Notes under the pieces: generated by a model
The model's database searches: none
Told to the model about the DNA's origin: nothing
The model's input: the letters and a program-made list of their open reading frames with translations, nothing else
Source: an uncultured Pelagibacteraceae bacterium
GTDB taxonomy: Bacteria > Pseudomonadota > Alphaproteobacteria > Pelagibacterales > Pelagibacteraceae
Assembly: GCA_902592965.1 (NCBI GenBank)
Contig: CACJGL010000004.1
Span: 4,624-68,623, forward strand
DNA: 64,000 nucleotides
Direction: 5' to 3'
In this document: positions 21,727 to 37,117 of the stretch, in pieces
How the letters are laid out: every line of letters begins with the position of its first letter
How positions within the stretch are numbered: position 1 is the first letter of the stretch
Position numbers and translations under genes: made by a program

Positions 21727-24700
21727 TTAGTGTTGCTTACCAAGTATTGTTTTACCTGATGGAACACGAACTTCGTCTACCATTTGCTGTGTAGCTTTAT
21801 CTGGTTCTTCAGTCATTAAACTTACTACAACCATTACAACTAAACAGACCGACGCTCCAATTATACCAAAACGTAAATGGTCAATACCTAACCAAGGTGC
21901 ATTACCCATAAACTTAGGATACACATAAATTAGATAAGCTGTTCCTGATGCAAGACCTGCTATCATACCTGCTATTGCTCCTTGTCTTGTTGCTCTCTTC
22001 CACCATACACCAAGTATTAATGGGAAGAACAATCCTGACATTGCAAAGTCAAATGCCCAAGCAACTGCACCAAGGATACTAGTGATTCTCATCGATGCAA
22101 TGTATGCTCCAGCGGCTCCAATAACTATTAGAAGTGCTCTAGCAACCAACAATCTTTTTCTTACATCCGCTTTTGGATCAATGATTTTGTAATAGATATC
22201 ATGTGATAAAGCGTTTGCGATAGCAAGAATTAGACCATCAGCAGTTGACATCGCAGCAGCCATTCCTCCTGCAGCAACTAGTCCAGAAATTACGTATGGT
22301 AATCCAGCAACTTCAGGAGTTGCCAGTACAACTACGTCACCTCTCATAAACCATTCGTTCAACTGAAGAATACCATCCCCGTTAAAGTCTGCTATGTAGG
22401 CTTGTTTTACATTAATCCAAGCATTTACCCACTCAATTTGCATAATTTCAGCAATTGGTTTTCCAATAATACCTGTTGGTAAGTTTGGATCTATTAGTGA
22501 GATTTTGGATAATGTTGCAAGCATTGGCGCTGAAGTATAAAGCAATGCAATAAAGAATAGTGACCATGCCACTGATTTTCTTGCAGCTTTAACACTTGGA
22601 GTAGTGAAGTATCTCATTAAAATATGTGGTAAAGAAGCCGTTCCTACCATCATACATAGTGCTAATGAAATAAATTTCCATGCAGCCATTCCACCTTCTG
22701 GCACACCTGCGTGTGATACAGCGATAGATTTTAGACCACCTGGTACACCTGCAGCTTTGACGTCTGCAGCAGCATTTTTGACTAATCCAAATTGAGCTTC
22801 AAGATCACCTAATCTAGCCACTTCCTCACCTAACATAAAGTGTGGAAAGAAACCAAATCCAGATTTGTTACTAATCCAGAATACTGGAATTAGGTAAGCA
22901 ATAATCAATACTATGTATTGTGCAACCTGTGTCCAAGTTACCGCTCTCATTCCGCCTAGCATTGAACAAAGTAAAATACTTACTAGTCCAACCCAAACTC
23001 CTAATTCAAATGGAATACTTAGTGCTCTTGATGCAATTGTTCCTGTTGCGTTAATTTGAGCTGTTACATACGTGAAAGATGCCAATGTTAAAACAACTAC
23101 AGCAGCTTCTGCTACTTTTGGATGAGCAACAAACGCACTTTCTATTTCTGCAGTTCCAAGATTATGTCCTGAAACAATAATTACATCATCAACTCTTCCA
23201 GTGATCCAATAATATCCATCTTTATCTCTTCTGCACCCGTCCCCTGTAAAATATTTGCCATCAAATTGAGAAAAATAAGTATCAATAAATCTTTGATGAT
23301 CTCCATAAACTGTACGCATTTGACCAGGCCATGATTGTGCTATACACAAACGACCTTCAGCTTCTCCTTTCAAAACTTTCCCTTCTTTATTTACTATTAC
23401 TGGTTTAATCCCATAAAATGGTTTTGTTGCTGAACCTGGTTTTAAATTTATAGCTCCTGTTTGTGGACTAATTAATATTCCACCAGTTTCAGTTTGCCAC
23501 CAAGTATCAACAATTGGACAATTAGAATCTCCAACAGTTTTATAATACCACTCCCATGCCTCGGGATTGATTGGTTCCCCTACGGTTCCTAATAATTTTA
23601 ATGTTTTTCTTGAAGTTTTTTTAACAGGCTTATCACCTTCTCTCATTAAAGCTCTAATAGCAGTTGGGGCAGTATAAAAAATATTTACTTTATATTTATC
23701 AACGATTTGCCACCATCTTGAACTGTCGGGATAAGTTGGAATTCCCTCAAACATTATTGTTGTTGCCCCATTTGATAATGGTCCATAAATAATATAGCTA
23801 TGACCAGTTACCCAACCAATGTCAGCAGTACACCAATAAATATCTTTAGTTTTATAATTGAATATATATTGATGGGTCATAGATGCATAAACCATATATC
23901 CACCAGTTGTATGCATTACACCTTTTGGTTTTCCTGTTGATCCTGAAGTATACAAAATAAATAAAGGATCTTCTGCATTCATTTCTTCGGGTTCACATTT
24001 GTTTGAAACTTTTTTTATTAACTCGTGGTACCAAACATCTCTTCGTTCATCCCAATTAATTCTATTGCCTGTTCTTTTGACTACTACACATTTTTTCACA
24101 TTTGGACAATTTACCAAAGCCTCGTCAGCTATTGATTTCAGAGGTATTATTTTTCCACCTCTTACACCCTCATCGGCAGTAATTAGATAATCAGACTCAC
24201 AATCGTTTATTCGTCCAGAAATACTATCAGGAGAAAATCCTCCAAAGATTATTGAGTGCACTGCTCCTATTCTTGCACAAGCTAACATAGTATACGCAAG
24301 TTCTGGTATCATAGTTAAATAAATTGTTACTCTATCACCTTTTTTAACTCCTAATTCTTTAAGACCATTTGCAGCTTTAGAAACTTCTTTGTGTAATTCT
24401 TTATAAGAAATTTTCTTTTGAACCTTTGGATCATCTCCAACCCATATAATCGCAGTTTTATCTTTATTCTTCTTTAAGTGTCTATCAATACAATTTGCTG
24501 ATGCATTAAGAGTACCATCATAAAACCATTTTATCTTAACATCTGATTTACTATATTTAACATCTTTAATTTTTGTATATGGTTTTATCCAATTAATTCT
24601 TTTTCCTTCTTTTTTCCAAAATCCATCATTATCTTTTATTGAAGCTTTATATTTTTTTTCATACTGAGATTTATTTACTAGAGCTTTGCTGATCCAGTCT

Positions 24701-24813
24701 TTCTTTGTTCTATATATAAGTTCTTTTTCTTGCTTTGGTGCAAAAGACTTTATCTTAGATTTTCTTTTAGTGATTATTTTCTTCTTTTTTTTTTTAACTT
24801 TTTTTTTTGGCAT
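21727..24813 (-). CDS. acs: In-frame chimera: acetyl-CoA synthetase (aa 1-~573, C-terminus missing) fused to an ActP-like sodium:solute symporter (N-terminus missing)
   Basis: [37 protein letters not shown]; then ...AEAAVV|[45 protein letters not shown]. Confidence 0.9.
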
Positions 24814-24827
24814 GGATTATAAATTTT

Positions 24828-25241
24828 TCAGATACTACCCATCTTCAAAATAATTTTCCAGCATTTAGTGTTAATTGGCATAACAGACAATCTGCTTTGT
24901 TTTATTAGTGCAATATCTTTTAAATCTTTATTTTTTTTAATGTTTTCAAGAGAAACTGGTGTTTTTAGTTTGCTTTTATACTTAACTTTTACTGCTACAA
25001 ATCGCTTATCTTTATCTGTTGGGTCAATAAATGCTGTTTTAATTACCTCAACAATTCCAACGATTTCTTTACCAATATTTGAATGGTAAAAAAAACAAAG
25101 ATCACCCTTCTTCATTTTTTTCAAATTATTGGCTGCTTGATAATTTCTTACTCCATCCCAGTCAGCACCTTTTGGACCAACCATAAATTGTTGATCTATC
25201 GACCAAACATTAGGCTCTGACTTTAACAACCAGTATTTCAT
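24828..25241 (-). CDS. EVE domain protein
   Basis: YWLLKSEP, WDGVRNYQA.N, FFYHS, SRLSV. Confidence 0.95.
   Translation of the reverse strand: MKYWLLKSEPNVWSIDQQFMVGPKGADWDGVRNYQAANNLKKMKKGDLCFFYHSNIGKEIVGIVEVIKTAFIDPTDKDKRFVAVKVKYKSKLKTPVSLENIKKNKDLKDIALIKQSRLSVMPINTKCWKIILKMGSI
25103..25241 (-). repeat. Direct repeat copy 1 (EVE 5' 139 bp)
   Basis: Aligns ungapped with 31886-32024, about 10 mismatches by manual alignment. Confidence 0.95.
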
Positions 25242-25326
25242 TAATTTACAATTTCCTTAAATTAAAATCAAAATTTATTAAATATTAATATATAAGATAT
25301 TTAAAACTATTTTTTCCTTCAAAAAA

Positions 25327-26985
25327 TTAGTCAATTATATTCCTAAGTCTTAACTCTTTCTCCCAATTAATTATTTCATCATTTTTATTATACAATTGAG
25401 TAATTTTTTTTTTTTTATTTCCTTTATCAATAAAAAAACTTTTTTTAGCCAGTAGTTTGAAGTTGTAATCTGTAGAACAACTTAAAAGAGACCTCGCTGC
25501 ATTTGGTAAATTCATAGTATTTTCAGCATTTATCAGACAACTTTTATCAAATTTTACAATCGTGAAAGTATCATATTTAGAAGTTTTATAGTTATTTTTG
25601 TTAATATATTCTCCATGATCAGATGTGATCACGATATTTGCATTATTGTCGTTATTATAAATATAACTAAAAAATTCTTCTAATTTTTTTAACATGCATT
25701 CGTAATTTTTTTTATAGCCATAATGTTCATCATTGGGTGAATAAGTTGTATTTATTTTTTTAAACTTACAATCTGAATCGTAAACAAATGGTTCGTGTGG
25801 TATCATCAAGTGCATAAAAATAAACTTTTTTGAGTCTTGTTTTATATTTGTTTTATAAAACTTTTTAAAAGAATCATTATTTTCAAAACTTCTCTTTTTA
25901 AAATTATCTTCAACACTTTTGTAAGATTTAAATAAATTTCTAATTCTATTTTCAATAGAATAAAATGGACTAGACTTATAAAATGTTAAAATTACATTAT
26001 ATGAAAATAGTATATTTTTTTCATTTTTTAAATAATTAGAATGACAAAGTTTTTGGTTATATAACTCACAGTTTTTAGTAGCATTCCCAAACCAAAAAAA
26101 ATCATAATCAATATCATCTAAATATTTTATTAAAGGTAGTTTATATATGAATGGTTCTGCTAAAATCTTCGGATAAATTAAATCTTCAGGATAATCATTA
26201 ATATTTTTTTCATTGAGATGGTATTTCATAAAAAAAGCAGATGCTATGCTATTTGAGCTGTAGGGATAAGCTGTTTTTGTGCCAGAAATATATTTAAATC
26301 CATACTTTGATGCTGTATTTAAGAATTTATCTGAATAATTCCTTTTATAAACTTTTTCAAACTCATTTAAGTCAACTGCGTCATCTACGATAATTAAATA
26401 AATATTCCTCTTAGAATTTATTGATGATATTTTTTTCTTATCTATAGCTGTTACAAAATTTTGCTTGCTAGATTTCAATTTATATAAATTATAAATTAAA
26501 AAATATGCTTCAGTAAAAAAACAAATAGCTATAAATATAGATATAAACCTTTTTGCAAATGAGTTATTTTTAAATAGAACTAATATTATGAAAATTAAAT
26601 ATATAAATAATAATATAATAAATGATATCTCTCCAGAGATAGAAGATAAATCATAATCTGATATATCATAAATTACTATAACTAAATTTTTTTTTAAAGA
26701 TGAAAAAAAATAAAAAAAAATAAAAAAAAATAAAGCTATCGCAATTAGTAACTTGTTAAAAATTTTTTTTTTAAAAACAAAATTAATAAATATTGCAGAA
26801 ATAGTAATTAAAAAAAGATAGAAAAAAAAATTAATAATAATCGATTTAATAAAAACATTATCTATTTCTAGATAATTTCTATTCATAAAAGAGATATTCG
26901 GAATTATTATAATTATTGCGCTCAGAATAAAGTATAAAATATAACTTTTAACGCCTAAATTATTAAAAAGTTTTTTAAATAACAT
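25327..26985 (-). CDS. Membrane-anchored alkaline-phosphatase-superfamily protein (LtaS/sulfatase-like transferase)
   Basis: About 5 N-terminal TM helices; NIYLIIVDD, HLMIPHEPF and ITSDHG metal-binding motifs; very AT-rich. Confidence 0.8.
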   Translation of the reverse strand: MLFKKLFNNLGVKSYILYFILSAIIIIIPNISFMNRNYLEIDNVFIKSIIINFFFYLFLITISAIFINFVFKKKIFNKLLIAIALFFFIFFYFFSSLKKNLVIVIYDISDYDLSSISGEISFIILLFIYLIFIILVLFKNNSFAKRFISIFIAICFFTEAYFLIYNLYKLKSSKQNFVTAIDKKKISSINSKRNIYLIIVDDAVDLNEFEKVYKRNYSDKFLNTASKYGFKYISGTKTAYPYSSNSIASAFFMKYHLNEKNINDYPEDLIYPKILAEPFIYKLPLIKYLDDIDYDFFWFGNATKNCELYNQKLCHSNYLKNEKNILFSYNVILTFYKSSPFYSIENRIRNLFKSYKSVEDNFKKRSFENNDSFKKFYKTNIKQDSKKFIFMHLMIPHEPFVYDSDCKFKKINTTYSPNDEHYGYKKNYECMLKKLEEFFSYIYNNDNNANIVITSDHGEYINKNNYKTSKYDTFTIVKFDKSCLINAENTMNLPNAARSLLSCSTDYNFKLLAKKSFFIDKGNKKKKITQLYNKNDEIINWEKELRLRNIID

Positions 26986-27039
26986 TTGAATTATTTTATC
27001 GCTATTATTAGTAGTCTAATATATTAAAATATATTTTAC

Positions 27040-28341
27040 ATGAAGAATAAAAAAAAAAAAATAGTATACGCTGCTTTGTCCGCGGATATATTGCATGAAG
27101 GTCATATTAATATTTTAAAATATGCTAACAAACTTGGCGATGTCATCGTTGGTCTTTTGACTGATGAAGCAATTGCGTCTTATAAAAATATACCAACTTT
27201 AAATTATAGACAGAGAGAAATTGTTTTAAAAAATATTAGATATGTAAAAAAAGTTATTCCTCAAAAAACTCTAGATTATAGGCCTAATTTATACTTTATT
27301 AAGCCAAATTATGTAGTTCATGGTGACGATTGGAAAACAGGTGTTCAAAAAAATACTAGAAGACAAGTAATTTTAACAATTAAAAAATGGGGTGGTAAAT
27401 TAATAGAACCAAATTATACAAAAAATATTTCTTCAACCAAAATTAAATCAAATCTTATAAGTCAATTAACTCCTACATCAAGAGTTTCAAATTTAAGAAG
27501 ACTATTGAAAACCAAAAAGCTGGTAAGAGTTTTAGAAGCCCACAGTCCACTATCAGGTTTACTTATTGAAAATACAAAAATTGAAAAAAAAAATAAAATT
27601 GAACAGTTTGATGCTATGTGGTCTTCGAGCTTAACAGACTCTAGCTTAAAAGGTAAACCAGATAATCAATCATTAGATTTTTCTTCAAGATTTAATGGAT
27701 TAGGTGATTTATTAGATGTAACCACAAAACCTATAATTTTCGATGCAGACAACGGAGGAAGATTAGAACATCTTTCATTTACTATAAGAACTCTTGAGAG
27801 ATTAGGAGTTTCAGCAATTATCATAGAAGATAAAGTTGGTTTAAAAAAGAATTCGCTATTCAAAAATCAATCAGGATCTAAGCAAGATAATATTAATGAA
27901 TTTTGCAAAAAAATTAAACTGATAAAAAAAACAAGAAAGTCCAAAGATTTCTTAATAGGTGCAAGAATAGAAAGTTTTATTTTAGGCAAGGGGTTAAATG
28001 ATGCATTAAAACGAGCTAAAGCATATTCGAATTCTGGTGCAGATTTAATTTTAATTCATAGTAAAGAAACAACTCCCAAAGAAATATTTTCATTTTCTAA
28101 AATTTTTAGAAAAACAAAATGGAATAAACCTTTAGTATCAGTACCCTCAACATATTCGAGGACTACCGAAAACGAATTATTTAAAAATGGTTTCAGAATT
28201 GTTATATATGCAAATCATATGCTAAGAGCAGCATACCCAGCTATGCAAAGTGCTGTTAAAAGTATACTTAAAAATAAAAGATCTTACGATTTAGAAAATA
28301 AAATTAGCTCAGTAAATGAAATAATTAATTTAATTAAATAA
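27040..28341 (+). CDS. pepM: Phosphoenolpyruvate mutase with N-terminal cytidylyltransferase domain
   Basis: DILHEGH (HxGH) and VVHGDDW NTase motifs; PepM signature EDKVGLKKNS (EDK-X5-NS), ARIES, IYANH..RAAY. Confidence 0.96.
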   Translation: MKNKKKKIVYAALSADILHEGHINILKYANKLGDVIVGLLTDEAIASYKNIPTLNYRQREIVLKNIRYVKKVIPQKTLDYRPNLYFIKPNYVVHGDDWKTGVQKNTRRQVILTIKKWGGKLIEPNYTKNISSTKIKSNLISQLTPTSRVSNLRRLLKTKKLVRVLEAHSPLSGLLIENTKIEKKNKIEQFDAMWSSSLTDSSLKGKPDNQSLDFSSRFNGLGDLLDVTTKPIIFDADNGGRLEHLSFTIRTLERLGVSAIIIEDKVGLKKNSLFKNQSGSKQDNINEFCKKIKLIKKTRKSKDFLIGARIESFILGKGLNDALKRAKAYSNSGADLILIHSKETTPKEIFSFSKIFRKTKWNKPLVSVPSTYSRTTENELFKNGFRIVIYANHMLRAAYPAMQSAVKSILKNKRSYDLENKISSVNEIINLIK

Positions 28342-29450
28342 TGATATTAGTAAATAAACTAATTGAAGTTTTAAAAAAAAACAAAATAGAATTTTTTACC
28401 GGAGTTCCTGACAGCATTTTAAAAAATTTTTCTTTATATTTAGAAAAATTACCAAAACAAATGCATGTTATAGCTACAAATGAAGGTTTGGCTACATCTT
28501 TAGGAATTGGTTATTATTTATCTACAAAAAAAATACCATGTATATATTTACAAAACTCAGGATTAAGTAATGCAATAAATCCTCTAATTTCAATTGCAAA
28601 TAAAGCAGTTTATTCAATACCATTATTTTTAATGATAGGATGGAGAGGTTCTCCAAAAAAATTTGACGAGCCACAACATAATGCAAAGGGCAAAATAACC
28701 ACTAAATTATTAAAACTTTTAAAAATTGAATACTGCATTTTAAGAGAAGAAGAAGACTTAAAAAAACTAAATAAAATAATTAAAACAGCAAAAAAAAACC
28801 AAAGCATAGTTGCCTGCCTGGTAGAAAAAAATACTTTAAAATTTGGTCAAATAATAAATAAGAAAAAGGAAAAAAATTATATCTTTCGTCACGAATTTAT
28901 TGAGGAGTTTTTAAAATTAGTACCAAAAAAAAGTAAAATAATTTCTACAACTGGATTTACCTCAAGAGAGTTAATGGATTTAAGAAAAAAAAATAAAATT
29001 AAAAATGGAAAAGATTTTTATATGGTAGGTGGGATGGGTCATTCAGCGAGTGTAGCATCAGGTTATGCTTTACATTCAAAAAAAAAAATATTTTGTTTAG
29101 ATGGTGATGGTTCAATATTGATGCATATGGGTGCATTAAGGACAATAGGCTATCTTAAGAAAAAAAATTTAAGCCATATATTATTAAATAATAATTCGCA
29201 TGAATCTGTTGGTGGCCAACCCACGTCAGCTTTTGGAATAGATTTTAAAAAATTATGTATTAGTCTTGGATACAAGAATTATTTTTTTATAAATAATAAA
29301 AAAAATTTAAAAATAAAGATCAAATCTTTCATCAAATCTAAAGGTCCGAGTTTTTTAGAGGTAAAAATAAATAATGGCTCTTTAAAGAATTTGTCTAGAC
29401 CAAAAAATCTAAATAAAATAAAGAAAAATTTTATGTCAACTTATGATTAA
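28341..29450 (+). CDS. ppd: Phosphonopyruvate decarboxylase
   Basis: FTGVPDS, QNSGL.NAINPL, DEPQH, VGGMGH, ThDP motif DGDG..NN..HESVGGQ. Confidence 0.95.
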   Translation: MILVNKLIEVLKKNKIEFFTGVPDSILKNFSLYLEKLPKQMHVIATNEGLATSLGIGYYLSTKKIPCIYLQNSGLSNAINPLISIANKAVYSIPLFLMIGWRGSPKKFDEPQHNAKGKITTKLLKLLKIEYCILREEEDLKKLNKIIKTAKKNQSIVACLVEKNTLKFGQIINKKKEKNYIFRHEFIEEFLKLVPKKSKIISTTGFTSRELMDLRKKNKIKNGKDFYMVGGMGHSASVASGYALHSKKKIFCLDGDGSILMHMGALRTIGYLKKKNLSHILLNNNSHESVGGQPTSAFGIDFKKLCISLGYKNYFFINNKKNLKIKIKSFIKSKGPSFLEVKINNGSLKNLSRPKNLNKIKKNFMSTYD

Positions 29451-30561
29451 TTTTAATATTTCATCAAATAAAGATCTTAACAACTTTCTAAAAGATTCAA
29501 AATTCAAAAATATATTTATAATATCTGGCAAAAAATCATTTGAAGCCTCAGGATCGAAAAAAATTATGAAAAAATTCTTGATAAATAAGAATGTAAAATA
29601 TTATTTTAAAATAAATTCATATCCTGAACTTAACGAGTTAAAAAAAATAATTAAAGAAATCAAAATATTTAGTCCCGATTTAATTATTGCAATTGGCGGC
29701 GGATCGGTAATCGATTATGCTAAAATTGCAAATGTTTTAACAAGTAGTAAAAATTTAAAATATGAAATTTTAAATTCCTCTTACAATGTAAAAAATAAAT
29801 TTACTAAATTAGTTGCAATACCAACTACTGCAGGATCTGGAGCAGAAGTTACCACAAATGCAGTAATATATATAAACAAAATTAAATATTCAGTTGAAGG
29901 AGATAAATTAAGACCTGATTTTTTTTTTTTAATTCCCGAGTTAGTTTTGGGTGCTTCCAATAAAATTAAATCATCAGCAGGTTTTGATGCTATTGCCCAA
30001 GCAATGGAGTCACTCATTTCAAAAAAATCAAATTCTAAAAGTGTAGCTTTTGCAAAAAAATCTCTCAAAATCTCTTTAAAATATTATTTAGATTTTTTAT
30101 CAAATCCAAATAAAGAAAATTCATATGCAATGTGTTTGGCCTCAAATTTAGCTGGTGAAGCAATTAGTATATCTAAAACAACGGCACCTCATGCAGTATC
30201 TTACCCTTTTACAGCAATTTATAATATTAGTCATGGACATGCTGTTTCTTTAACTCTTGATAAATTTTTTAAATTTAACTTTAAAAATATTAAAAACGCA
30301 AAATGTAATTTTAACCTCAATGATAGATATAAAATAATGTTTGATATTACCAAAAGTAAAGATATTGACAGTTTTAATGGGTATATTAAAAATATTAAAA
30401 AAGAAGCAAATCTTGAAAGTAATTTTATTAAATTAGGAATTGATTTAAAGAAAGATTATTCAAAGATTATCTCAGGTATTAATATAATGAGATTATCAAA
30501 CAATCCGGTGCAATTAAAAAAAAATGATTTAAAAGAAATTATTCTTAAAGATAATGTTTAA
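29443..30561 (+). CDS. Phosphonoacetaldehyde reductase (iron-containing alcohol dehydrogenase)
   Basis: GGGSVID.AK, IPTTAGSGAE, TTAPHAVSYP, HGHAV; follows pepM-ppd. Confidence 0.88.
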   Translation: MINFNISSNKDLNNFLKDSKFKNIFIISGKKSFEASGSKKIMKKFLINKNVKYYFKINSYPELNELKKIIKEIKIFSPDLIIAIGGGSVIDYAKIANVLTSSKNLKYEILNSSYNVKNKFTKLVAIPTTAGSGAEVTTNAVIYINKIKYSVEGDKLRPDFFFLIPELVLGASNKIKSSAGFDAIAQAMESLISKKSNSKSVAFAKKSLKISLKYYLDFLSNPNKENSYAMCLASNLAGEAISISKTTAPHAVSYPFTAIYNISHGHAVSLTLDKFFKFNFKNIKNAKCNFNLNDRYKIMFDITKSKDIDSFNGYIKNIKKEANLESNFIKLGIDLKKDYSKIISGINIMRLSNNPVQLKKNDLKEIILKDNV

Positions 30562-31864
30562 AAAGAAATACTTTTCACTAAATTTAGTTTTAATTATTTA
30601 TTTTTTAATTACTAGTAGTTCATATGCATATCTTGATCCAGTAACTGGATCTTTTATTATACAGATTATTGTTGCCACCTTTGCAGCAATAATTACTTTT
30701 CTATCTTTTTTTTGGTCTAAAACTAAAGAATTTTTTTATAATTTTTTTTTTAAAAGAGAGAATTTAGCTAAATCTTTAAGAGGTTATGTTAAATTTTTAA
30801 AATTGAAGAAAAATGATGATCTCATATTTTATAGCGAGTCTAAAAATTATAGAAATTATTTTATAGAATTAATAAATAATCTAGGTAAAAGTCATAAAAT
30901 TATTTATCTTACATCTGATGAAGAAGACTTAGATCATATTAATGATGTAAAACCTATATTTATAGGCGATGGTATAATAAGATTAATTCTTTTTAAATTT
31001 CTTAAGTGCAAAATAATTTTTTTAACACTGACAAATCTTAATTATCATCAATTAAAAAAATCAAAAAAATGTGAAAATTATATATATATATTTCATTCTT
31101 TGGTTAGCACTCATAAATGTTACGAAAAAAATTCGTTTGAAGCTTATGATATTATCTTTTCCAATGGTCCATATCAAACTCGAGAACTTAAAAAGGCGGA
31201 AGAGATTTATAATTTTAAACAAAAAAAAATATTTGAAACCGGATATTTATATTATGAGTTTTTAAAGAAAAATAAAAAAAATTTACCTGTTAAAAAAGGA
31301 ACAATACTTTTTGCTCCATCTTGGAATAGAAATAATAAAAATTTATTTGATGATTATTCTCATGAACTTATATCATCTCTTTTAAAGCAAAATTTCAAAG
31401 TAATATTTAGACCCCACCCCGAGTTATTGAAAAGATCTAATAAAACCTTAAAAAAATTAGTTACTTCTTTTAAAGATAATAAGAATTTTAGATTAAATAA
31501 AGATATTACTGATGTTCAATACTTAGAAGAGTCTGAATTTCTAATAACTGATAATGGTGGTATGGCTTTAGAATATTCTACAATATTTGAAAAGCCCACA
31601 ATGTATATTAATTATTCTGAAAAAATTCATAACAAGGATTTTAAAGAAATTGATGTGAGTACAATTGAAGATACCTTTAAAGAAATGTTTTGTTTATCAA
31701 TAAAAATTGATCAAATTGATGAAATACAATCTTTGAAAAAAAAAATGGATAGTAATTTTATTGAACAAAAAGATAAAATTAAATTATTTGTTTCAGAGAA
31801 TTTTAATTTTGATATCCCACCTTCGAAAAAATGTAAATCTTTGATTGAAGATATTATAAAATAA
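30554..31864 (+). CDS. TagF/CDP-glycerol glycerophosphotransferase-like protein with N-terminal YLDPxTGS membrane segment
   Basis: IFHS, ETGY, LFAPSW, FRPHP, LITD.GG..EY motifs. Confidence 0.8.
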   Translation: MFKKKYFSLNLVLIIYFLITSSSYAYLDPVTGSFIIQIIVATFAAIITFLSFFWSKTKEFFYNFFFKRENLAKSLRGYVKFLKLKKNDDLIFYSESKNYRNYFIELINNLGKSHKIIYLTSDEEDLDHINDVKPIFIGDGIIRLILFKFLKCKIIFLTLTNLNYHQLKKSKKCENYIYIFHSLVSTHKCYEKNSFEAYDIIFSNGPYQTRELKKAEEIYNFKQKKIFETGYLYYEFLKKNKKNLPVKKGTILFAPSWNRNNKNLFDDYSHELISSLLKQNFKVIFRPHPELLKRSNKTLKKLVTSFKDNKNFRLNKDITDVQYLEESEFLITDNGGMALEYSTIFEKPTMYINYSEKIHNKDFKEIDVSTIEDTFKEMFCLSIKIDQIDEIQSLKKKMDSNFIEQKDKIKLFVSENFNFDIPPSKKCKSLIEDIIK

Positions 31865-31868
31865 AATA

Positions 31869-32024
31869 TTATAATTTTACTCCAGCACCCTTCTTCATTT
31901 TTTTAAAATTATTTGCTGCTTGATAATTTCTTACTCCATCCCAGTCAGCACCTTTTGGACCAACCTTTAATTGTTGATCTATCGACCAAACATTAGGCTC
32001 TGATTTGAGTAACCAATATTGCAT
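31869..32024 (-). pseudogene. Truncated EVE duplicate (46 EVE codons plus AGVKL*); direct repeat copy 2
   Basis: MQYWLLKSEPNVWSIDQQLKVGPKGADWDGVRNYQAANNFKKMKKG-AGVKL*; about 93% identical to 25103-25241. Confidence 0.92.
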
Positions 32025-32038
32025 TTAAATAATTTATA

Positions 32039-32200
32039 TTAAATTGCTATGTAAGTAAAAGGTATAAAAACTTGAACAAAAACAAAAATAGAAAAAATTA
32101 AAACTAAAAAAATAAACATTATAAAAAATATTAATTTTACATAACCATATTTTTTTTTAAAGTCATTAATTAGGTAAATATAATTTAAAATTTTTTTCAT
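32039..32200 (-). CDS. DUF5989/SxtK-like small membrane protein (53 aa), not in ORF track
   Basis: MKKILNYIYLINDFKKKYGYVKLIFFIMFIFLVLIFSIFVFVQVFIPFTYIAI*; ATGA overlap with the carbamoyltransferase stop; PFxY C-terminus. Confidence 0.72.
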   Translation of the reverse strand: MKKILNYIYLINDFKKKYGYVKLIFFIMFIFLVLIFSIFVFVQVFIPFTYIAI

Positions 32201-33888
32201 ATCTTTTTTACTTTAAATATACCGTTATTCATTACGACATATTCAATATTCATTCTTATCATATTTGTATAAACGTCAAACAAATCAAACACCATTGGAT
32301 CTTTTGATATATTAAAAGATGTATTTACTAGTATGTTAACATTATTTTCTTCTAGCTTTTTTAATAATTTAAAAATAAATGAATTTTCATCATCAATAAC
32401 TTGAGTTCTGCAGGTGTTGTCAGTGTGAATTACAGGTAAGTAATCATTTTTTAATTCTTCTTTCGCCTCACATAGAGTTCCCATTGAATATAAATTTTTT
32501 TTAATACTATTTTGAATAGAAAAATATCTTTCAAATTTTTCTTTAAGTAACATCGGAGCAAGTGGTTGATAAAATTCCCTTTTTTTTATTCTGTTATTTA
32601 AATTTTCAACAGCTAATTTATCTTTAGCATTACAAATTATAGAAGTATTGCCCAATGCGCGAGGTCCTGTTTCCATTTTATCAATATAAGTTGTAAGAAT
32701 GTGGCCTTTGATTATTAGATTAGAAGCTATTTCTAAAGAGTTTTCCTTTTGAGAAATTTTTTCAAAAAATTCACTCAATTTGAATCCTTTATTGATATCC
32801 TCTTTATCTGGTCCAGGAAATAGACCTATATGTTTTAAGAATTTATTATTTTCATAAAAATACGAAAAATTCGCAGCCCCAATTGCTGAGCCCGAATCTC
32901 CCGGTGAAGGAGGAACAATTAATTCTTCAAATATGTTTTGTTTAGATAATTCGTGTATCATTTTACAATTTAATGCTACACCACCCGTTAGAACAATTTT
33001 GTTTTTACCTGTTAGTTGTTTTGCTTTTAAAATAAGATTTTTTACCGATTTTTTTAATATTAGTTGAGCTGAACTTGCAATATTAGAATACTTTTGAAAA
33101 TTTTCTTTAATTCCCAAATTTAAATAAGGCTTTCCAAAAATTTTTATAATTATTTCAGAGAACGATCTTTCAGGATTTTTTTGAAATTCAAAGTACGACG
33201 AATTTATCTTTAATTGTTCACAATCAAAAATTTTTTCCATTTCTTTCTCATAAATTGGATTACCATATGAACTTAAACTCATTACTTTAAACTCACCTTC
33301 ATTTGTGTCAAAACCTAGAAAATCAGTTATAGTAGAATAAAATAATCCAATTGAATTAGGATAAAAGTTTGTCCAATGTTTTTTTATTAAATTTTCAGAG
33401 TTGATTGTGTATATGGTCATTGTTTCACCTTCTCCTACCCCGTCACAACTTACAAATGCATAATCATCAATATTATCTACGTATAATGAACCATACAAAC
33501 AATGGCTGAGATGATGCGATGAATATAAAATTTTATCTTTAGATATTTTTATTACTTCATTTAAATGAGTATAAAAAAATATAGACCCTGTATTAAAATT
33601 TTTTAGATGGTGTGTTAATAATTTTTTATTCTCCAGAGGTTTTTTTATTGAATAAATAAAGATTTCCCACCATGATTTGAAAGGTTTTTCATAAAAACAT
33701 ACTGATTTTATATTGCTTTCGTTTAAAGAATATTTTTTTTTTAAAAATTCTAAGCATCTTTTCGGGAAACTTTTGTCACCTTTTATTCTTGTAAAATACT
33801 CTTCTTTAATAAAACAATTGATATTTATTCCATCTGTTAAGAAAATAGAAGATTCGTGATAATAAGCTGAAATACCAATATAAAACAT
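32197..33888 (-). CDS. O-carbamoyltransferase (NodU/CmcH/TobZ/SxtI family)
   Basis: GISAYYHES, HHLSH, GEFKVM, GGVALNC, GDSGSAIGAA, GPRALGN, NTSFN. Confidence 0.93.
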   Translation of the reverse strand: MFYIGISAYYHESSIFLTDGININCFIKEEYFTRIKGDKSFPKRCLEFLKKKYSLNESNIKSVCFYEKPFKSWWEIFIYSIKKPLENKKLLTHHLKNFNTGSIFFYTHLNEVIKISKDKILYSSHHLSHCLYGSLYVDNIDDYAFVSCDGVGEGETMTIYTINSENLIKKHWTNFYPNSIGLFYSTITDFLGFDTNEGEFKVMSLSSYGNPIYEKEMEKIFDCEQLKINSSYFEFQKNPERSFSEIIIKIFGKPYLNLGIKENFQKYSNIASSAQLILKKSVKNLILKAKQLTGKNKIVLTGGVALNCKMIHELSKQNIFEELIVPPSPGDSGSAIGAANFSYFYENNKFLKHIGLFPGPDKEDINKGFKLSEFFEKISQKENSLEIASNLIIKGHILTTYIDKMETGPRALGNTSIICNAKDKLAVENLNNRIKKREFYQPLAPMLLKEKFERYFSIQNSIKKNLYSMGTLCEAKEELKNDYLPVIHTDNTCRTQVIDDENSFIFKLLKKLEENNVNILVNTSFNISKDPMVFDLFDVYTNMIRMNIEYVVMNNGIFKVKKI

Positions 33889-33893
33889 TAAAG

Positions 33894-34610
33894 TTATAGT
33901 ATTGATTTTGGATTAATATTTTTTAAAACATCATTGTCCATTTTGGATTTATCCAAATCCAAAAATCTTACAGGTAAAGACATAATTAAAATTAATAAGT
34001 ATAAAATTGGATTAAAAATTTTTGAAACTTTAGTTAAGCTATTAGCATAAAGATGCCTTAACTTACTTATTAAATTCTCTTTTGAGAATTTAATAAAATA
34101 ACTGAATTTGGAATTATTTTTTTTTGCAAATTTAAGTGAATACTTGGCATGTCGTTCTTCATCTAACAAAATTTTGTCAATTTGCTTTGAGTGATCCGGT
34201 TTAAATTTTCTAATATTTTTGAGAAAATCATGCAATTTTTTTTCTGCAATTTCCTCATTTGCACCAATAAAAATTGCAAAGTCTTTAATATTTTTTTTCT
34301 CAAAAATAAATTTATCTTTATATATATATCCTTTAGCAAATAGATGAATTGGTACAAATCTTATTTCTCTATTATTTAATTGGTGTTCTAAGGAAATTTG
34401 GTTTTTGATATTTGTAAATATAGAAAAATGTTTATACTCATCTAATGAATGTCTTATGAAACCTTTGCTTAATTTTAAATCATCTACATTTTTAGCTGCA
34501 AATAACATTTCTAACGCAGATGCAAATTCTGCTGCAGAAAATTCATTTAAAACAAAACAACATCTTAAAGGTTCAAATTTTTCTAGCTTATTTTTTGGTA
34601 TTAAAAACAT
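33894..34610 (-). CDS. Ferritin-like diiron protein with C-terminal membrane helix
   Basis: Two E...ExxH pairs (AAEF...DEYKH; NEEI...DEERH); C-terminal NPILYLLILIMSLPVR. Confidence 0.72.
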   Translation of the reverse strand: MFLIPKNKLEKFEPLRCCFVLNEFSAAEFASALEMLFAAKNVDDLKLSKGFIRHSLDEYKHFSIFTNIKNQISLEHQLNNREIRFVPIHLFAKGYIYKDKFIFEKKNIKDFAIFIGANEEIAEKKLHDFLKNIRKFKPDHSKQIDKILLDEERHAKYSLKFAKKNNSKFSYFIKFSKENLISKLRHLYANSLTKVSKIFNPILYLLILIMSLPVRFLDLDKSKMDNDVLKNINPKSIL

Positions 34611-35529
34611 TTTATTAATAATTTTTCTTTTAATTTTAACAACAAGTTCCTTAAAATCAAAAGAATGTTTAGATTTTTTACCATTTGGTCATAACGAAAA
34701 TTATGTTCAATTACCTGAAGAAACTCAATTTTGTATTAAATACGGCAAGCAGAATTTGATTTTTAAAACAGATAATAAAGGTGGAAGATTTTTCAAAAAA
34801 AAAAATGAAAATACAATTCAGGTTTTTGGGGATAGTCAAATTTTAGGTATTGATATACAAAATCAGAAAGATCATTTCTTGTCAAAATTTTATAACAAAG
34901 ATTTAGTAATCTATGCTGCTCCTAATAATGGTCCCTACCAAGTTTTAAATTTCATTATCTTAAATCAAGAAAAAATAAATAAAAAAATAATTATTAGTTT
35001 TAATTTGTCTGTTGATATTTTTCGTTTACATCCTGATTATAACATCCAAAATTATGTAGCGCTTAGACAGGATCAATTAAATGATATAATTGAAAAACCA
35101 TTTAAATACAGACTTATTATTCTAAAAAGTTTAATCACAAATAAATTTTTCACAATTTCTAGAAAAAATCAAAAAAAAATGCAAATTCTTTTTGAAAATA
35201 AAAATACCAAAGAGCTTGAAAAAAACTTAAATATATATTTTGAAAACTTAAATGAAATTATTGATAAACTTGATATTGAAGTAGATTATATCTTAACAAT
35301 GCCTTATTGGATTTATGAGCAAGATGAAAATAATAAAAGTTTTTTTATTAACTCTAATTTAGAGCTTAAGTTGAAGAATTTAGTTTGTAGAACATTTCAC
35401 AAAAATAATAAATTACAAAATAAATATGTCTCTATTTTAGACAACAATAATAAAATTCTCACTAAGGATAATAGGCATTTAAGATTAGATAAATTAGTTT
35501 TGACTGATTTAGTAAATTATTGTAAATGA
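34600..35529 (+). CDS. Exported SGNH/GDSL-like protein (start uncertain; ORF open from 34405)
   Basis: Signal-like KNILLIIFLLILTTSSLKS, FGDS block I, PNNGP, late D..H (DNRH). Confidence 0.6.
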   Translation: MKNILLIIFLLILTTSSLKSKECLDFLPFGHNENYVQLPEETQFCIKYGKQNLIFKTDNKGGRFFKKKNENTIQVFGDSQILGIDIQNQKDHFLSKFYNKDLVIYAAPNNGPYQVLNFIILNQEKINKKIIISFNLSVDIFRLHPDYNIQNYVALRQDQLNDIIEKPFKYRLIILKSLITNKFFTISRKNQKKMQILFENKNTKELEKNLNIYFENLNEIIDKLDIEVDYILTMPYWIYEQDENNKSFFINSNLELKLKNLVCRTFHKNNKLQNKYVSILDNNNKILTKDNRHLRLDKLVLTDLVNYCK

Positions 35530-35533
35530 TAGT

Positions 35534-36043
35534 ATGATCAAAAAAATATTCTGTATAACGCTTTTTTCATTATTAACTTTTTCATTCAATGTTAATTCAG
35601 CAGAAATAAAATGTGATGCAGTAGTTATTAGTTCACCAGACATTAAAGGCGATGAGGATTGTAAAAAGAATAAGATTTCAACGAAAAATGCAGAAGTTAA
35701 ATTTGATGATGGATCGATATACCAAGGACCAATTAAAAAAAATAAGATAAATGGCAAAGGAAAATTAACTCTTAATGATGGCTCTGTTTATGAAGGTAAA
35801 TTTAAAAGTAATAAATTTATACAAAAATTTGATAGGAAAAGTAGAATCTTTATTAAATTTAATTTCAAAAAACCAATAAACATTAAAAATCAAATGAAAG
35901 TTACCGGTTTAACAAAATGGTATCCTGCAGATGTTGTTAATGGAGAATTCAAACTTTCAAAAAAAGGAAAGTTGATGGTGTCTCAAGATAAAAAAGCTGC
36001 ACAAGGTGGTGATAGCGGTGGAAGCGGTGGAAGCGGCTGCTAA
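35534..36043 (+). CDS. Exported MORN-repeat protein with Gly/Ser-rich Cys-terminated tail
   Basis: Signal peptide; DGSIYQG..KINGKG.L..DGSVYEGKF; ends GGDSGGSGGSGC. Confidence 0.75.
   Translation: MIKKIFCITLFSLLTFSFNVNSAEIKCDAVVISSPDIKGDEDCKKNKISTKNAEVKFDDGSIYQGPIKKNKINGKGKLTLNDGSVYEGKFKSNKFIQKFDRKSRIFIKFNFKKPINIKNQMKVTGLTKWYPADVVNGEFKLSKKGKLMVSQDKKAAQGGDSGGSGGSGC
36014..36036 (+). repeat. 9-bp tandem repeat (AGCGGTGGA x2 + AGCGG) encoding SGG repeats
   Basis: Read directly from sequence. Confidence 0.8.
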
Positions 36044-36046
36044 AAA

Positions 36047-37117
36047 TTAATAAATTAATCCAGATCCTTTTAAAAATTTAGCACTAGCATCTAAGGCTAA
36101 TCTTGGATTAGCTTCTAAATCCATATTATCAAATTTCTTTATTTTATATTTTTCTAGACCTACCAATGCGATCATTGCTGCGTTGTCTCCACATAGTTTA
36201 ATATCTGGAAAAATTGCCTTAAAGCCATTCTCATTACTCACTTCGGTTAGTTTTTTTCTTATACCATTGTTTGCAGCAACTCCTCCCGCAACAACAAAAG
36301 ACTTTTCTTCAAATGGGTTTTTTAAAAATTCCTTAAAAGCGATCTTAGATTTAATATACAATATTTCTTCGATAGTTTTTTGAAAAGACGCTGCTAAATC
36401 ATATTTTTCTTGTTCTGAATTTATATATTTTGTTATTCTTAGTATTGCAGTTTTAAGTCCTGCAAAAGATAAATTGCATCCACCTTTATTAATTATTGGT
36501 TTGGGTAATTTATATTTATTTGGATCACCTTTTTCAGCAAATTTTTCTAACTTTGGACCACCTGGAAATTCTATTCCTAAAAGCTTTGCAGTTTTGTCAA
36601 ATGCCTCTCCTAAAGCATCATCAATTGTAGTGCCTAATCTTGTGTAACTACCTAATCCATTCACACTTAAAAATTGACTGTGTCCACCCGATATCAACAG
36701 AAGTAAATAAGGATAATTAATATTAGTTTGAAGTCTTGGACTTAAAGCATGACCCTCTAGATGATTGACACCAATAAATGGAATTTTTAAGGATGATGCA
36801 AGTGATTTTGCAAAATTTAAACCAACACTAAGACAAATTATTAAACCAGGTCCAGATGTTGCGGCAACAGCAGATATTTTATCAAGAGATACACCACTCT
36901 CATCCAAAGCTTTTTTTGCAATTAAATTAATTTTTTCAACATGTGACCTTGCAGCCAATTCTGGCACAACTCCTCCAAATTCTTTATGAATGTCAAATTG
37001 ACTTGAAACGATATTTGATAAAATTTTTGGTATACCACTCTCGTTATCTTGAATAATTGAAACCGCTGTTTCATCACAACTTGTCTCAATTCCTAATATT
37101 ATTGGGCTTTTATTCAT
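36047..37117 (-). CDS. tsaD: t6A37 threonylcarbamoyltransferase TsaD
   Basis: GIETSCDET, GGVVPELAARSH, HLEGH, DDALGEAFDK, GGVAAN, DNAAMI. Confidence 0.98.
   Translation of the reverse strand: MNKSPIILGIETSCDETAVSIIQDNESGIPKILSNIVSSQFDIHKEFGGVVPELAARSHVEKINLIAKKALDESGVSLDKISAVAATSGPGLIICLSVGLNFAKSLASSLKIPFIGVNHLEGHALSPRLQTNINYPYLLLLISGGHSQFLSVNGLGSYTRLGTTIDDALGEAFDKTAKLLGIEFPGGPKLEKFAEKGDPNKYKLPKPIINKGGCNLSFAGLKTAILRITKYINSEQEKYDLAASFQKTIEEILYIKSKIAFKEFLKNPFEEKSFVVAGGVAANNGIRKKLTEVSNENGFKAIFPDIKLCGDNAAMIALVGLEKYKIKKFDNMDLEANPRLALDASAKFLKGSGLIY

Follow-up and report, generated by a model that had tools for sequence, protein, structure and literature searches.

Gene content of the cassette

The stretch analysed here comprises 64,000 nucleotides of an uncultured Pelagibacteraceae bacterium (the window, on which all positions are counted) and belongs to an assembly that is 79% complete with 0.04% contamination. 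At 25327..31864 it carries a five-gene phosphonate cassette, the last gene of which begins with a hidden copy of a small tyrosine-bearing membrane peptide. One open reading frame (ORF) lies on the reverse strand (25327-26985) and four on the forward strand (27040-28341, 28341-29450, 29443-30561 and 30554-31864), adjoining or overlapping each other, with 54 bp between the divergent gene starts. The ORF coordinates thus confirm the layout described in the original prediction, an earlier note made from the sequence, which had read the five genes as a relay that makes and activates 2-hydroxyethylphosphonate (HEP), loads it on a lipid and transfers it to the cell surface.

The first forward gene (27040..28341) encodes a Fom1-type fusion of a cytidylyltransferase and a phosphoenolpyruvate mutase (PepM), with PF01467 and TIGR02320 above their cut-offs (370 bits against 320 for the latter), a HEGH motif and, at residue 263, EDKVGLKKNS, which follows the PepM pattern EDKxxxxxNS. 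The best PDB match of its N-terminal nucleotidyltransferase domain is entry 5x3d (E 1.7e-47), which we take to be the HEP cytidylyltransferase domain of Fom1 that makes HEP activated with cytidine monophosphate (CMP-HEP); glycerol-3-phosphate cytidylyltransferases reach only 3e-11. It is followed by a phosphonopyruvate decarboxylase (Ppd; 28341..29450, +; TIGR03297 with 386 bits, cut-off 312), so that both the PepM and the Ppd labels of the original prediction hold, and by an iron-dependent alcohol dehydrogenase (29443..30561, +; PF00465, PF25137) that scores under the cut-off of every NCBIfam model and has no named subfamily. In the genus, many pepM loci have such a dehydrogenase gene after ppd; judging from its gene position, this one is likely to be the phosphonoacetaldehyde reductase. 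A search of the whole assembly, at its 79% completeness, found no mpnS, aminoethylphosphonate transaminase, phnJ or phnD, which extends the earlier remark that the first two are missing from the window. PepM is 79-80% identical to its counterparts in three other Pelagibacteraceae loci with the same module (L086, L088 and L091), with which it forms a clade of support 99 in a quick tree. A promoter scan of 25200-27200 was uninformative (17 sites against 19.5 expected). The biosynthetic core of the cassette is ordinary.

The fourth forward gene encodes a protein of 436 residues in total, in which a fused peptide (30554..30763, +) precedes a soluble GT-B domain of the TagF type (30764..31864, +). 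The GT-B fold is predicted with a pLDDT of 91, the top Foldseek matches of the model are TagF (3l7k) and TarL (8va1), with capsule polymerases also among them, and the ESM Atlas groups the protein with PF04464 clusters (score 0.98). Two histidines, H181 and H288, are invariant in the alignment. No Pfam family, PF04464 included, matches the protein above cut-off, and among 120 listed homologs PF04464 is found in two and PF02350 in more. These homologs are nearly all about 375 residues long, some 60 shorter than the present copy. A single-protein search of the genome contigs found nothing; an alignment-based search did find relatives. A profile search of the PDB with the alignment returned chance matches only, and none of 19 candidate stretches in viral contigs was confirmed as a relative. 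The same fusion of peptide and TagF-like domain occurs in a 99% identical sequence (P0001) on another contig of 2,005 bases.

The divergent gene (25327..26985, −) encodes a 552-residue membrane protein resembling LtaS, EptA and NoeB, in which five N-terminal hydrophobic segments precede a domain predicted from hydropathy to face outwards. It has no passing Pfam match (PF00884 reaches 23 bits, under the cut-off of 25), and the best Foldseek matches of its model (pLDDT 68) are EptC, MCR-1, YejM and EptA (E 3e-6 and weaker). The structural features of an LtaS/EptA-type enzyme are present: a membrane N-terminus, the alkaline-phosphatase fold, Asp/His ligands (D201, H397, D456 and H457) and a Ser/Thr nucleophile, with position 243 being Ser/Thr and D456 conserved in all 13 rows of the alignment and D201 in 12. 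The TagF-like and sulfatase-like labels of the original prediction are thus borne out by folds and motifs, although not by a passing Pfam match. Known enzymes of the LtaS/EptA type use lipid head groups as donors; the gene context of the present enzyme argues for a peptide donor instead.

A hidden tyrosine microprotein

Three features had been overlooked in the earlier note: the peptide fused to the N-terminus of the TagF-like enzyme, a flanking 140-bp repeat and a foreign tsaD tail. The first approximately 65 residues of the TagF-like protein match the profile of a microprotein family (E 2.3e-22) and consist of a leader ending in S-Y-A, the sequence Y26-L-D-P-V-T-G-S (Tyr26 codon at 30629-30631), one membrane helix (34-52) and a basic tail. 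At related loci the microprotein is a stand-alone gene of 64-98 residues with a basic and hydrophobic leader resembling a signal peptide, an A-x-A site, Y-[LI]-[DE]-P-G, one membrane helix and a basic tail. The profile, built from nine copies, matches 9,416 clusters at 50% identity, 1,472 of them at E 1e-10, and for representative copies there is no match to a family in Pfam or NCBIfam. The tyrosine is the sole invariant residue (132 of 132 rows), preceded by alanine in 129. The peptide is found fused to three different partners: the TagF-like domain here, the sulfatase-like protein in L127 and, as assigned by reading the motifs, a NoeA-type kinase domain in P0165. Judged by its profile matches, the microprotein family is widespread and has neither name nor annotation. 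In the literature covered, which leaves out most subscription journals and preprint supplements, neither the peptide nor the relay proposed below was found described.

The partners of the peptide were tallied at 15 peptide loci taken from 300 drawn genomes of the phylum, at another 38 loci of the genus and at the TagF loci. Five of the 64 profile matches lacked the motif pattern and were dropped (three of these being G-type peptides beside the same sulfotransferase and arylsulfate sulfotransferase genes as described below), leaving 59; a few loci whose peptide was missed by ORF calling are uncounted. Since TagF itself was the route to the TagF rows, and related loci are not independent, the tally is to be read as patterns, not as statistics. 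All 17 peptides with Y-x-G-P have, at most 5.2 kb away, both a PF13469 sulfotransferase of the type that uses 3′-phosphoadenosine 5′-phosphosulfate and a PF14269 arylsulfate sulfotransferase (ASST). The 42 peptides with Y-x-[DE]-P lie with a TagF-like and a sulfatase-like gene (16), a NoeA-type and a sulfatase-like gene (13), a sulfotransferase and a sulfatase (one), a sulfatase-like gene only (four), TagF only (three), NoeA only (one) or no partner (four), and the four without a partner all lie at most 806 bases from an end. The peptide recurs between a soluble loader and an outward-facing transferase, and these two partners are exchanged as a pair from one type of locus to another. The seven best PDB matches of the sulfotransferase profile are all protein-tyrosine sulfotransferases (E 1e-16 to 2e-11). 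The presumed loading enzymes have no membrane or signal segments; a single N-terminal segment is usual in the ASSTs, against three to five in full-length sulfatase-like proteins. We also observed at many sulfate-type loci an unnamed two-helix membrane protein of 104-125 residues, whose gene separates that of the Y-x-G-P peptide from that of the sulfotransferase (L184-L197, L157, L158 and L164), which could help the peptide to cross.

A check made after the idea had been formed concerned the host-range operon of Sinorhizobium meliloti. An unnamed 71-residue ORF between nodL and noeA on pSymA (L204:2754-2969) is the peptide (E 7e-21), and a peptide ORF precedes the NoeA homologs on two other plasmids as well, that is, at all three plasmid NoeA loci. 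Moreover, in three Bacillota loci where YidC is fused to a TagF-like domain (L093, L094 and L095) the peptide gene is found just downstream each time, and L094 also has pepM.

The genes beside the TagF-like gene differ in the donor to which they point. The pepM-ppd-adh block is found here and at L086, L088 and L091, and pepM with other branch genes at L058 and L067. Five TagF-like loci without pepM (L090 and L119-L122) have genes of a phosphonate-binding ABC transporter and a helix-turn-helix nucleoside triphosphate (NTP) transferase, and pepM was not found in the genomes examined for these (G138, G252, G007 and G080, 60-79% complete); it is possible, from this gene content, that external phosphonates are salvaged there for display rather than for phosphorus. 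At L129, L133 and L153 the trio of peptide, TagF-like and sulfatase-like genes lies beside genes for an NTP transferase, a glutamine amidotransferase and a PPDK-like protein, all three confirmed by domains in L129 and L153, with an additional methyltransferase in L133. This set resembles what we assume to be O-methyl phosphoramidate synthesis. As read from their genes, the ABC/NTP-transferase and the phosphoramidate-type neighbours all stand for nucleotide-activated donors. Six further TagF-like genes are beside ATP-sulfurylase genes (L089, L092 and L125-L128), mostly with a sulfatase-like gene too and often with an FAD/NAD-binding gene, where the donor may be adenosine 5′-phosphosulfate or another adenylate. 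Finally, a single chromosomal site carries peptide-pepM-ppd-adh-TagF(-sulfatase) in L086, L088 and L091, while L085 and L087 lack just pepM-ppd-adh, and the synthesis block has therefore been gained or lost inside a transfer module.

Proposed tyrosine relay

We propose that the carrier of the phosphonate is the invariant tyrosine of the membrane peptide, not a lipid, and that the group is relayed from there to the surface enzyme, a reading of the sequences that we favour with moderate confidence. In the cytoplasm, phosphoenolpyruvate would be converted through phosphonopyruvate and phosphonoacetaldehyde to HEP and then to CMP-HEP, from which the TagF-like enzyme would move HEP onto Tyr26 as an aryl phosphonate ester. 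Signal peptidase would cut directly before this tyrosine, the peptide would carry the phosphonate over the inner membrane, and Ser243 of the sulfatase-fold enzyme would pick it up for a final acceptor that may be a surface glycan, with a putative role in dodging phage or grazers. The passage of HEP to Tyr26 and then to Ser243 is proposed by analogy: tyrosine that carries a sulfate is itself an aryl sulfate, and a kinase can use a protein hydroxyl. The loaders are devoid of export or membrane segments while their partners, which are anchored, face outwards, so that something must cross. ASSTs are periplasmic and use aryl sulfate donors, and therefore need an exported aryl sulfate. The available text of one report describes them as reacting with tyrosine peptides and as mostly lacking natural partners (PMC13426309), and that of another describes acyl groups crossing membranes on an invariant tyrosine of DltX or PatA (PMC12148441). 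Carriage over the membrane is the least certain step of the relay; most likely, the tyrosine would be loaded before membrane insertion and then exported with the peptide, for which the dedicated YidC fused to the loader in the three Bacillota loci may be cited. The make, activate, load and transfer scheme of the original prediction thus fits the sequence and recurs at L086, L088 and L091, but with a peptide tyrosine as the probable carrier in place of the lipid.

Several observations weigh against the tyrosine relay. The cassette has no DltB-like membrane transferase, so that the crossing step is without a known mechanism. The copy of the peptide here has Val where Gly is kept in 127 of 132 rows, and the sole copy found in the assembly is the one fused to the TagF-like enzyme; as the genome is 79% complete, a free copy may be missing from the assembly. 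One carrier per enzyme of 436 residues would give a poor yield if used once, and an anchor or a cycling shuttle would therefore fit better. The tyrosine was invariant in the seed of the profile, which biases the matches towards it, and the label profiles of the tally come partly from the same loci. The model of the sulfatase-like protein is of middling quality, with lipid-using enzymes as its nearest folds. VIA-align places UDP-GlcNAc 2-epimerases (Z 21.4) over TagF (19.6), and the modelled fold, being shared with epimerases, does not by itself pick out TagF. In addition, the donor of the TagF-like family varies, given the ATP-sulfurylase neighbourhoods and three TagF-like genes with no donor gene nearby (L085, L087 and L116); the phosphonate-free L085 and L087 are the closest relatives of the pepM-linked copies. 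Over 301 genomes of the genus, in which separate draws were treated as one, the peptide is present in 49, the TagF-like gene in 21 and pepM in 35. Its occurrence in 17 of the 21 genomes with the TagF-like gene, compared with 49 of 301 overall, speaks for the relay; pepM occurs in only seven of these 21. At the other pepM loci of the genus, peptide and sulfatase-like gene lie within about 10 kb of pepM in one of 35, many contigs being short. The co-occurrence of both transferases with pepM, which the original prediction named as a check, is thus seen only in part: the trio is not the usual SAR11 phosphonate route and the transferases are not specific to pepM.

The best-surviving alternative, although we think it unlikely, keeps the lipid: the TagF-like enzyme would load HEP on a membrane lipid, which would flip and feed the LtaS/EptA-like enzyme, with the peptide serving in anchoring or assembly only. 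The chemistry of LtaS and EptA is established, the closest folds of the sulfatase-like protein are the lipid-using EptC, MCR-1 and EptA, and fusion of the peptide to either enzyme would suit an anchor. However, this leaves unexplained why the same peptide accompanies an ASST and a tyrosylprotein-sulfotransferase-like enzyme, or a kinase, and why its sole invariant residue is a tyrosine right after the leader. The cassette also has no flippase or CDP-alcohol transferase, with one PF01066 gene elsewhere in the assembly.

It is more doubtful still that the pathway finishes with the modified peptide, acting as a signal or as a decorated microprotein on the surface, and that the sulfatase-fold enzyme or ASST removes or recycles the group. 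The alkaline-phosphatase fold does include hydrolases (the phosphonate monoester hydrolase 2w8s is among the Foldseek matches) and phosphonates have been linked to the protein fraction, according to the available text of PMC8931226. On the other hand, ASSTs are transferases, the loci sit among glycan genes (O-antigen ligase, Wzz and glycosyltransferases) and the exposed part of the peptide has fewer than ten residues. Finally, direct cytoplasmic modification of a glycan precursor by the TagF-like enzyme, in the manner of TagF/TarL and capsule polymerases and with the peptide and sulfatase-like gene as separate passengers, is the least likely of these: TagF, TarL and capsule polymerases lead the Foldseek list and neither gene lies within the fetched stretch at L067, L119-L121 and L123, but four of these five genomes have the peptide elsewhere (three beside a sulfatase-like gene or, in G168, at a contig end), as do 17 of the 21 TagF genomes, and here it is fused to the enzyme.

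Returning to the tyrosine relay, we may wonder whether it extends beyond phosphonates. Procoat-like microproteins might be general export carriers for anionic surface groups (phosphonate, phosphoramidate, methylphosphate or sulfate), which a soluble TagF-like, NoeA or tyrosylprotein-sulfotransferase-like enzyme would write on their tyrosine; protein export and signal peptidase would bring the group outside as an activated aryl ester, and a sulfatase-fold enzyme or ASST would move it to the envelope; we put this forward tentatively, at slightly less than an even chance. If true, it would name the missing step from CMP-phosphonate to the cell surface in marine bacteria, supply many periplasmic ASSTs with a natural donor and explain what the host-range genes noeA and noeB do chemically. 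One small peptide would then join three questions, those of phosphonate display, ASST partners and NoeA/NoeB. Marine phosphonates are a large phosphorus pool (PMC8931226), and NoeA and NoeB have no assigned chemistry in the available text of PMC9758233. The presence of the peptide in the nodL-noeA-noeB operon of S. meliloti makes a direct genetic test possible.

Insertion at the tsaD-EVE slot

The cassette lies in a slot between an EVE-domain gene and tsaD, and its borders record how it arrived. On one side is an intact EVE-domain gene (24828..25241, −; PF01878, E 4e-45), the 5′ end of which (25103..25242, −) forms the first copy of a direct repeat of 140 nucleotides. The second copy, 93% identical at a spacing of 6783, is the truncated 5′ end of the resident EVE gene (31886..32025, −), within a 51-residue ORF (31869-32024). 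This ORF ends in the last 21 bases of a foreign tsaD (31869..31889, −; G-A-G-V-K-L-stop), joined to about base 139 of EVE through 4-7 bases of microhomology. The insert is thus 6,783 bp long and the five cassette genes are all that lies between the repeats, where no integrase is found. Beyond it are the resident slot content (32039..36043: a 53-residue membrane microprotein, a carbamoyltransferase and three further genes) and the resident tsaD at the other border (36047..37117, −; TIGR03723 above cut-off).

The two EVE copies differ at ten of 139 sites. At these, an empty-site relative (G012) agrees with the truncated copy at seven and with the intact copy at two, and the 59 bases upstream of the truncated copy match those upstream of the G012 EVE gene at 57. 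In G012 the flanking proteins are 94-99% identical, the neighbouring module is shared and the EVE gene is intact, with no cassette; the five resident genes between EVE and tsaD are also present in it (60-93% identical) and in G296, again without the phosphonate cassette. The 21-base tail is identical to the tsaD ends of L105, L106 and L111, whereas the resident tsaD ends in KGSGLIY. The foreign tail and the EVE repeat together therefore indicate that the insert came from the tsaD-EVE slot of another lineage and was added beside the resident cassette. The insertion is real and well resolved. The donor would have held the cassette alone in its tsaD-EVE slot, and the piece, running from the tsaD tail to about base 139 of EVE, would have been added without an integrase, through a single microhomology join together with a single homologous crossover in EVE, so that the first approximately 139 bases of the intact gene would be the incoming allele that restores it. 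The data fit a circular or a linear incoming piece equally. Of 36 tsaD-EVE slots read, 14 are empty (at most 118 bases) and 22 hold other genes, none being a donor-type slot with the cassette alone; scanned contents include glycosyltransferase, O-GlcNAc-transferase-like and methyltransferase genes. A duplicated EVE 5′ end was seen in one of 317 genomes with an EVE match, which makes the event a one-off with no reuse of an attachment site. A model with a site-specific integrase was dropped, given the lack of an integrase, the single case in 317 and the donor tsaD tail. The junction illustrates how a further surface cassette can be added to the one already in a swap slot of a streamlined genome without an integrase.

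A chimera of two strains, made during amplification or assembly, could also account for the EVE repeat and the tsaD tail, but this is improbable. In its favour are the single occurrence in 317 genomes and a second microhomology join (acs-actP) 8.8 kb away. Pieces nearly identical to the TagF-like gene are present in contigs of four sequencing runs from three studies and, among the listed pieces, in marine metagenome contigs of two studies at low depth, while no RNA data set was among the runs listed; none of the listed pieces bridges the EVE/tsaD junction and an exact-pattern scan of metagenome contigs gave no match, which also counts against our account of the insertion. Against a chimera, the ten differences between the EVE copies and a tsaD tail unlike the resident one require two alleles, contamination is as low as stated above, and an overlap assembler would need more than 4-7 shared bases to make the join.

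Two other features of this neighbourhood may be recorded. At 21727-24813 (−) residues 1-575 of an acetyl-CoA synthetase run on in frame into the C-terminal portion of a sodium:solute symporter; compared with L001, 1,758 bases are gone (the end of acs, two small genes and the start of the symporter gene), with about 11 shared bases at 23094-23104, and the fusion is either a real deletion or an amplification chimera. In the resident module (32039-36043), the 53-residue microprotein beside the carbamoyltransferase ends in F-T-Y-I-A-I (as in L001 and L099), and a further protein has G-D-S and D-x-x-H motifs. On contig C7 of the genome (approximately 32850-34840) another carbamoyltransferase follows a 49-residue protein ending in F-I-Y-T-I-F, an exact DltX-type FXYXXF motif. 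These motifs suggest that the resident module resembles a second tyrosine shuttle, with carbamoyl transfer via tyrosine and no MBOAT.

Comparison with known systems

Phosphonate synthesis for surface decoration in SAR11, which the original prediction took as known, is indeed in print: surface decoration and evasion of phage or grazers have been proposed for the pepM clusters of SAR11 and Prochlorococcus (PMC8931226, available text). The present cassette shares with them the pepM-ppd-reductase core, the patchy distribution and horizontal movement, but it is self-contained and is not part of the large glycan islands. The available text of that paper names no activation or transfer step, with ‘cytidylyl’, ‘nucleotidyl’ and ‘glycosyltransferase’ occurring zero times in the main text. 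The formation of CMP-HEP by the Fom1 domain, and the nucleotidyl activation of phosphonates by Fom1 and PntC, are described in the available text of PMC6697681, and the same PF01467 domain is fused to PepM here; the next taker of the CMP-phosphonate is left open there, ‘TagF’ and ‘sulfatase’ occurring zero times in the main text. A catalogue of phosphonate branch points has also been published (PMC8942020, available text).

The TagF-like enzyme shares with the TagF/TarL polymerases (PF04464) the GT-B fold, two invariant histidines and a nucleotide-activated donor, but is only 15-18% identical to them, has no Pfam match or accompanying teichoic acid genes and is fused to the peptide here and to YidC in its Bacillota relatives. 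The sulfatase-like enzyme has the N-terminal membrane segments, alkaline-phosphatase fold, metal ligands and Ser/Thr nucleophile of LtaS, EptA, OpgB and NoeB, whereas its proposed donor is a modified tyrosine and that of LtaS, EptA and OpgB a lipid head group. As for the insertion, the additive and replacement flexible islands of SAR11 hold variable, surface-related content at a fixed slot, and addition leaves a partial repeat of the target; here, the target is a protein-coding gene, there is no integrase and the join carries the tail of a donor gene.

NoeA-NoeB of Sinorhizobium and Lani_1193-1195 of Legionella show the same combination of a kinase-methyltransferase and an alkaline-phosphatase-fold neighbour (PMC9758233, available text). 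The conserved small neighbour of NoeA homologs there, Lani_1193 (about 65 residues, in 65% of 816 neighbourhoods), is treated in that text as a possible effector only; our guess is that it is the same peptide as here.

The closest parallel in logic is provided by DltB-DltX-DltD and PatA-PatB (PMC12148441, available text), where we likewise find an activated cytoplasmic donor, an invariant microprotein tyrosine, an outward Ser/Thr enzyme and an envelope polymer. The five cassette genes, however, include no MBOAT and no SGNH partner, and the loaders are soluble. The tyrosine here is at the predicted new N-terminus after an A-x-A leader, whereas the Dlt/Pat motif is a C-terminal FXYXXF, and the groups carried would be oxyanions instead of acyl groups. 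There is no common sequence family and, as no part is homologous to the DltX shuttle, the export step would, if it proceeds as proposed, be categorically new. The cassette probably encodes a new tyrosine relay that is DltX-like in its logic without being a member of the DltX family.

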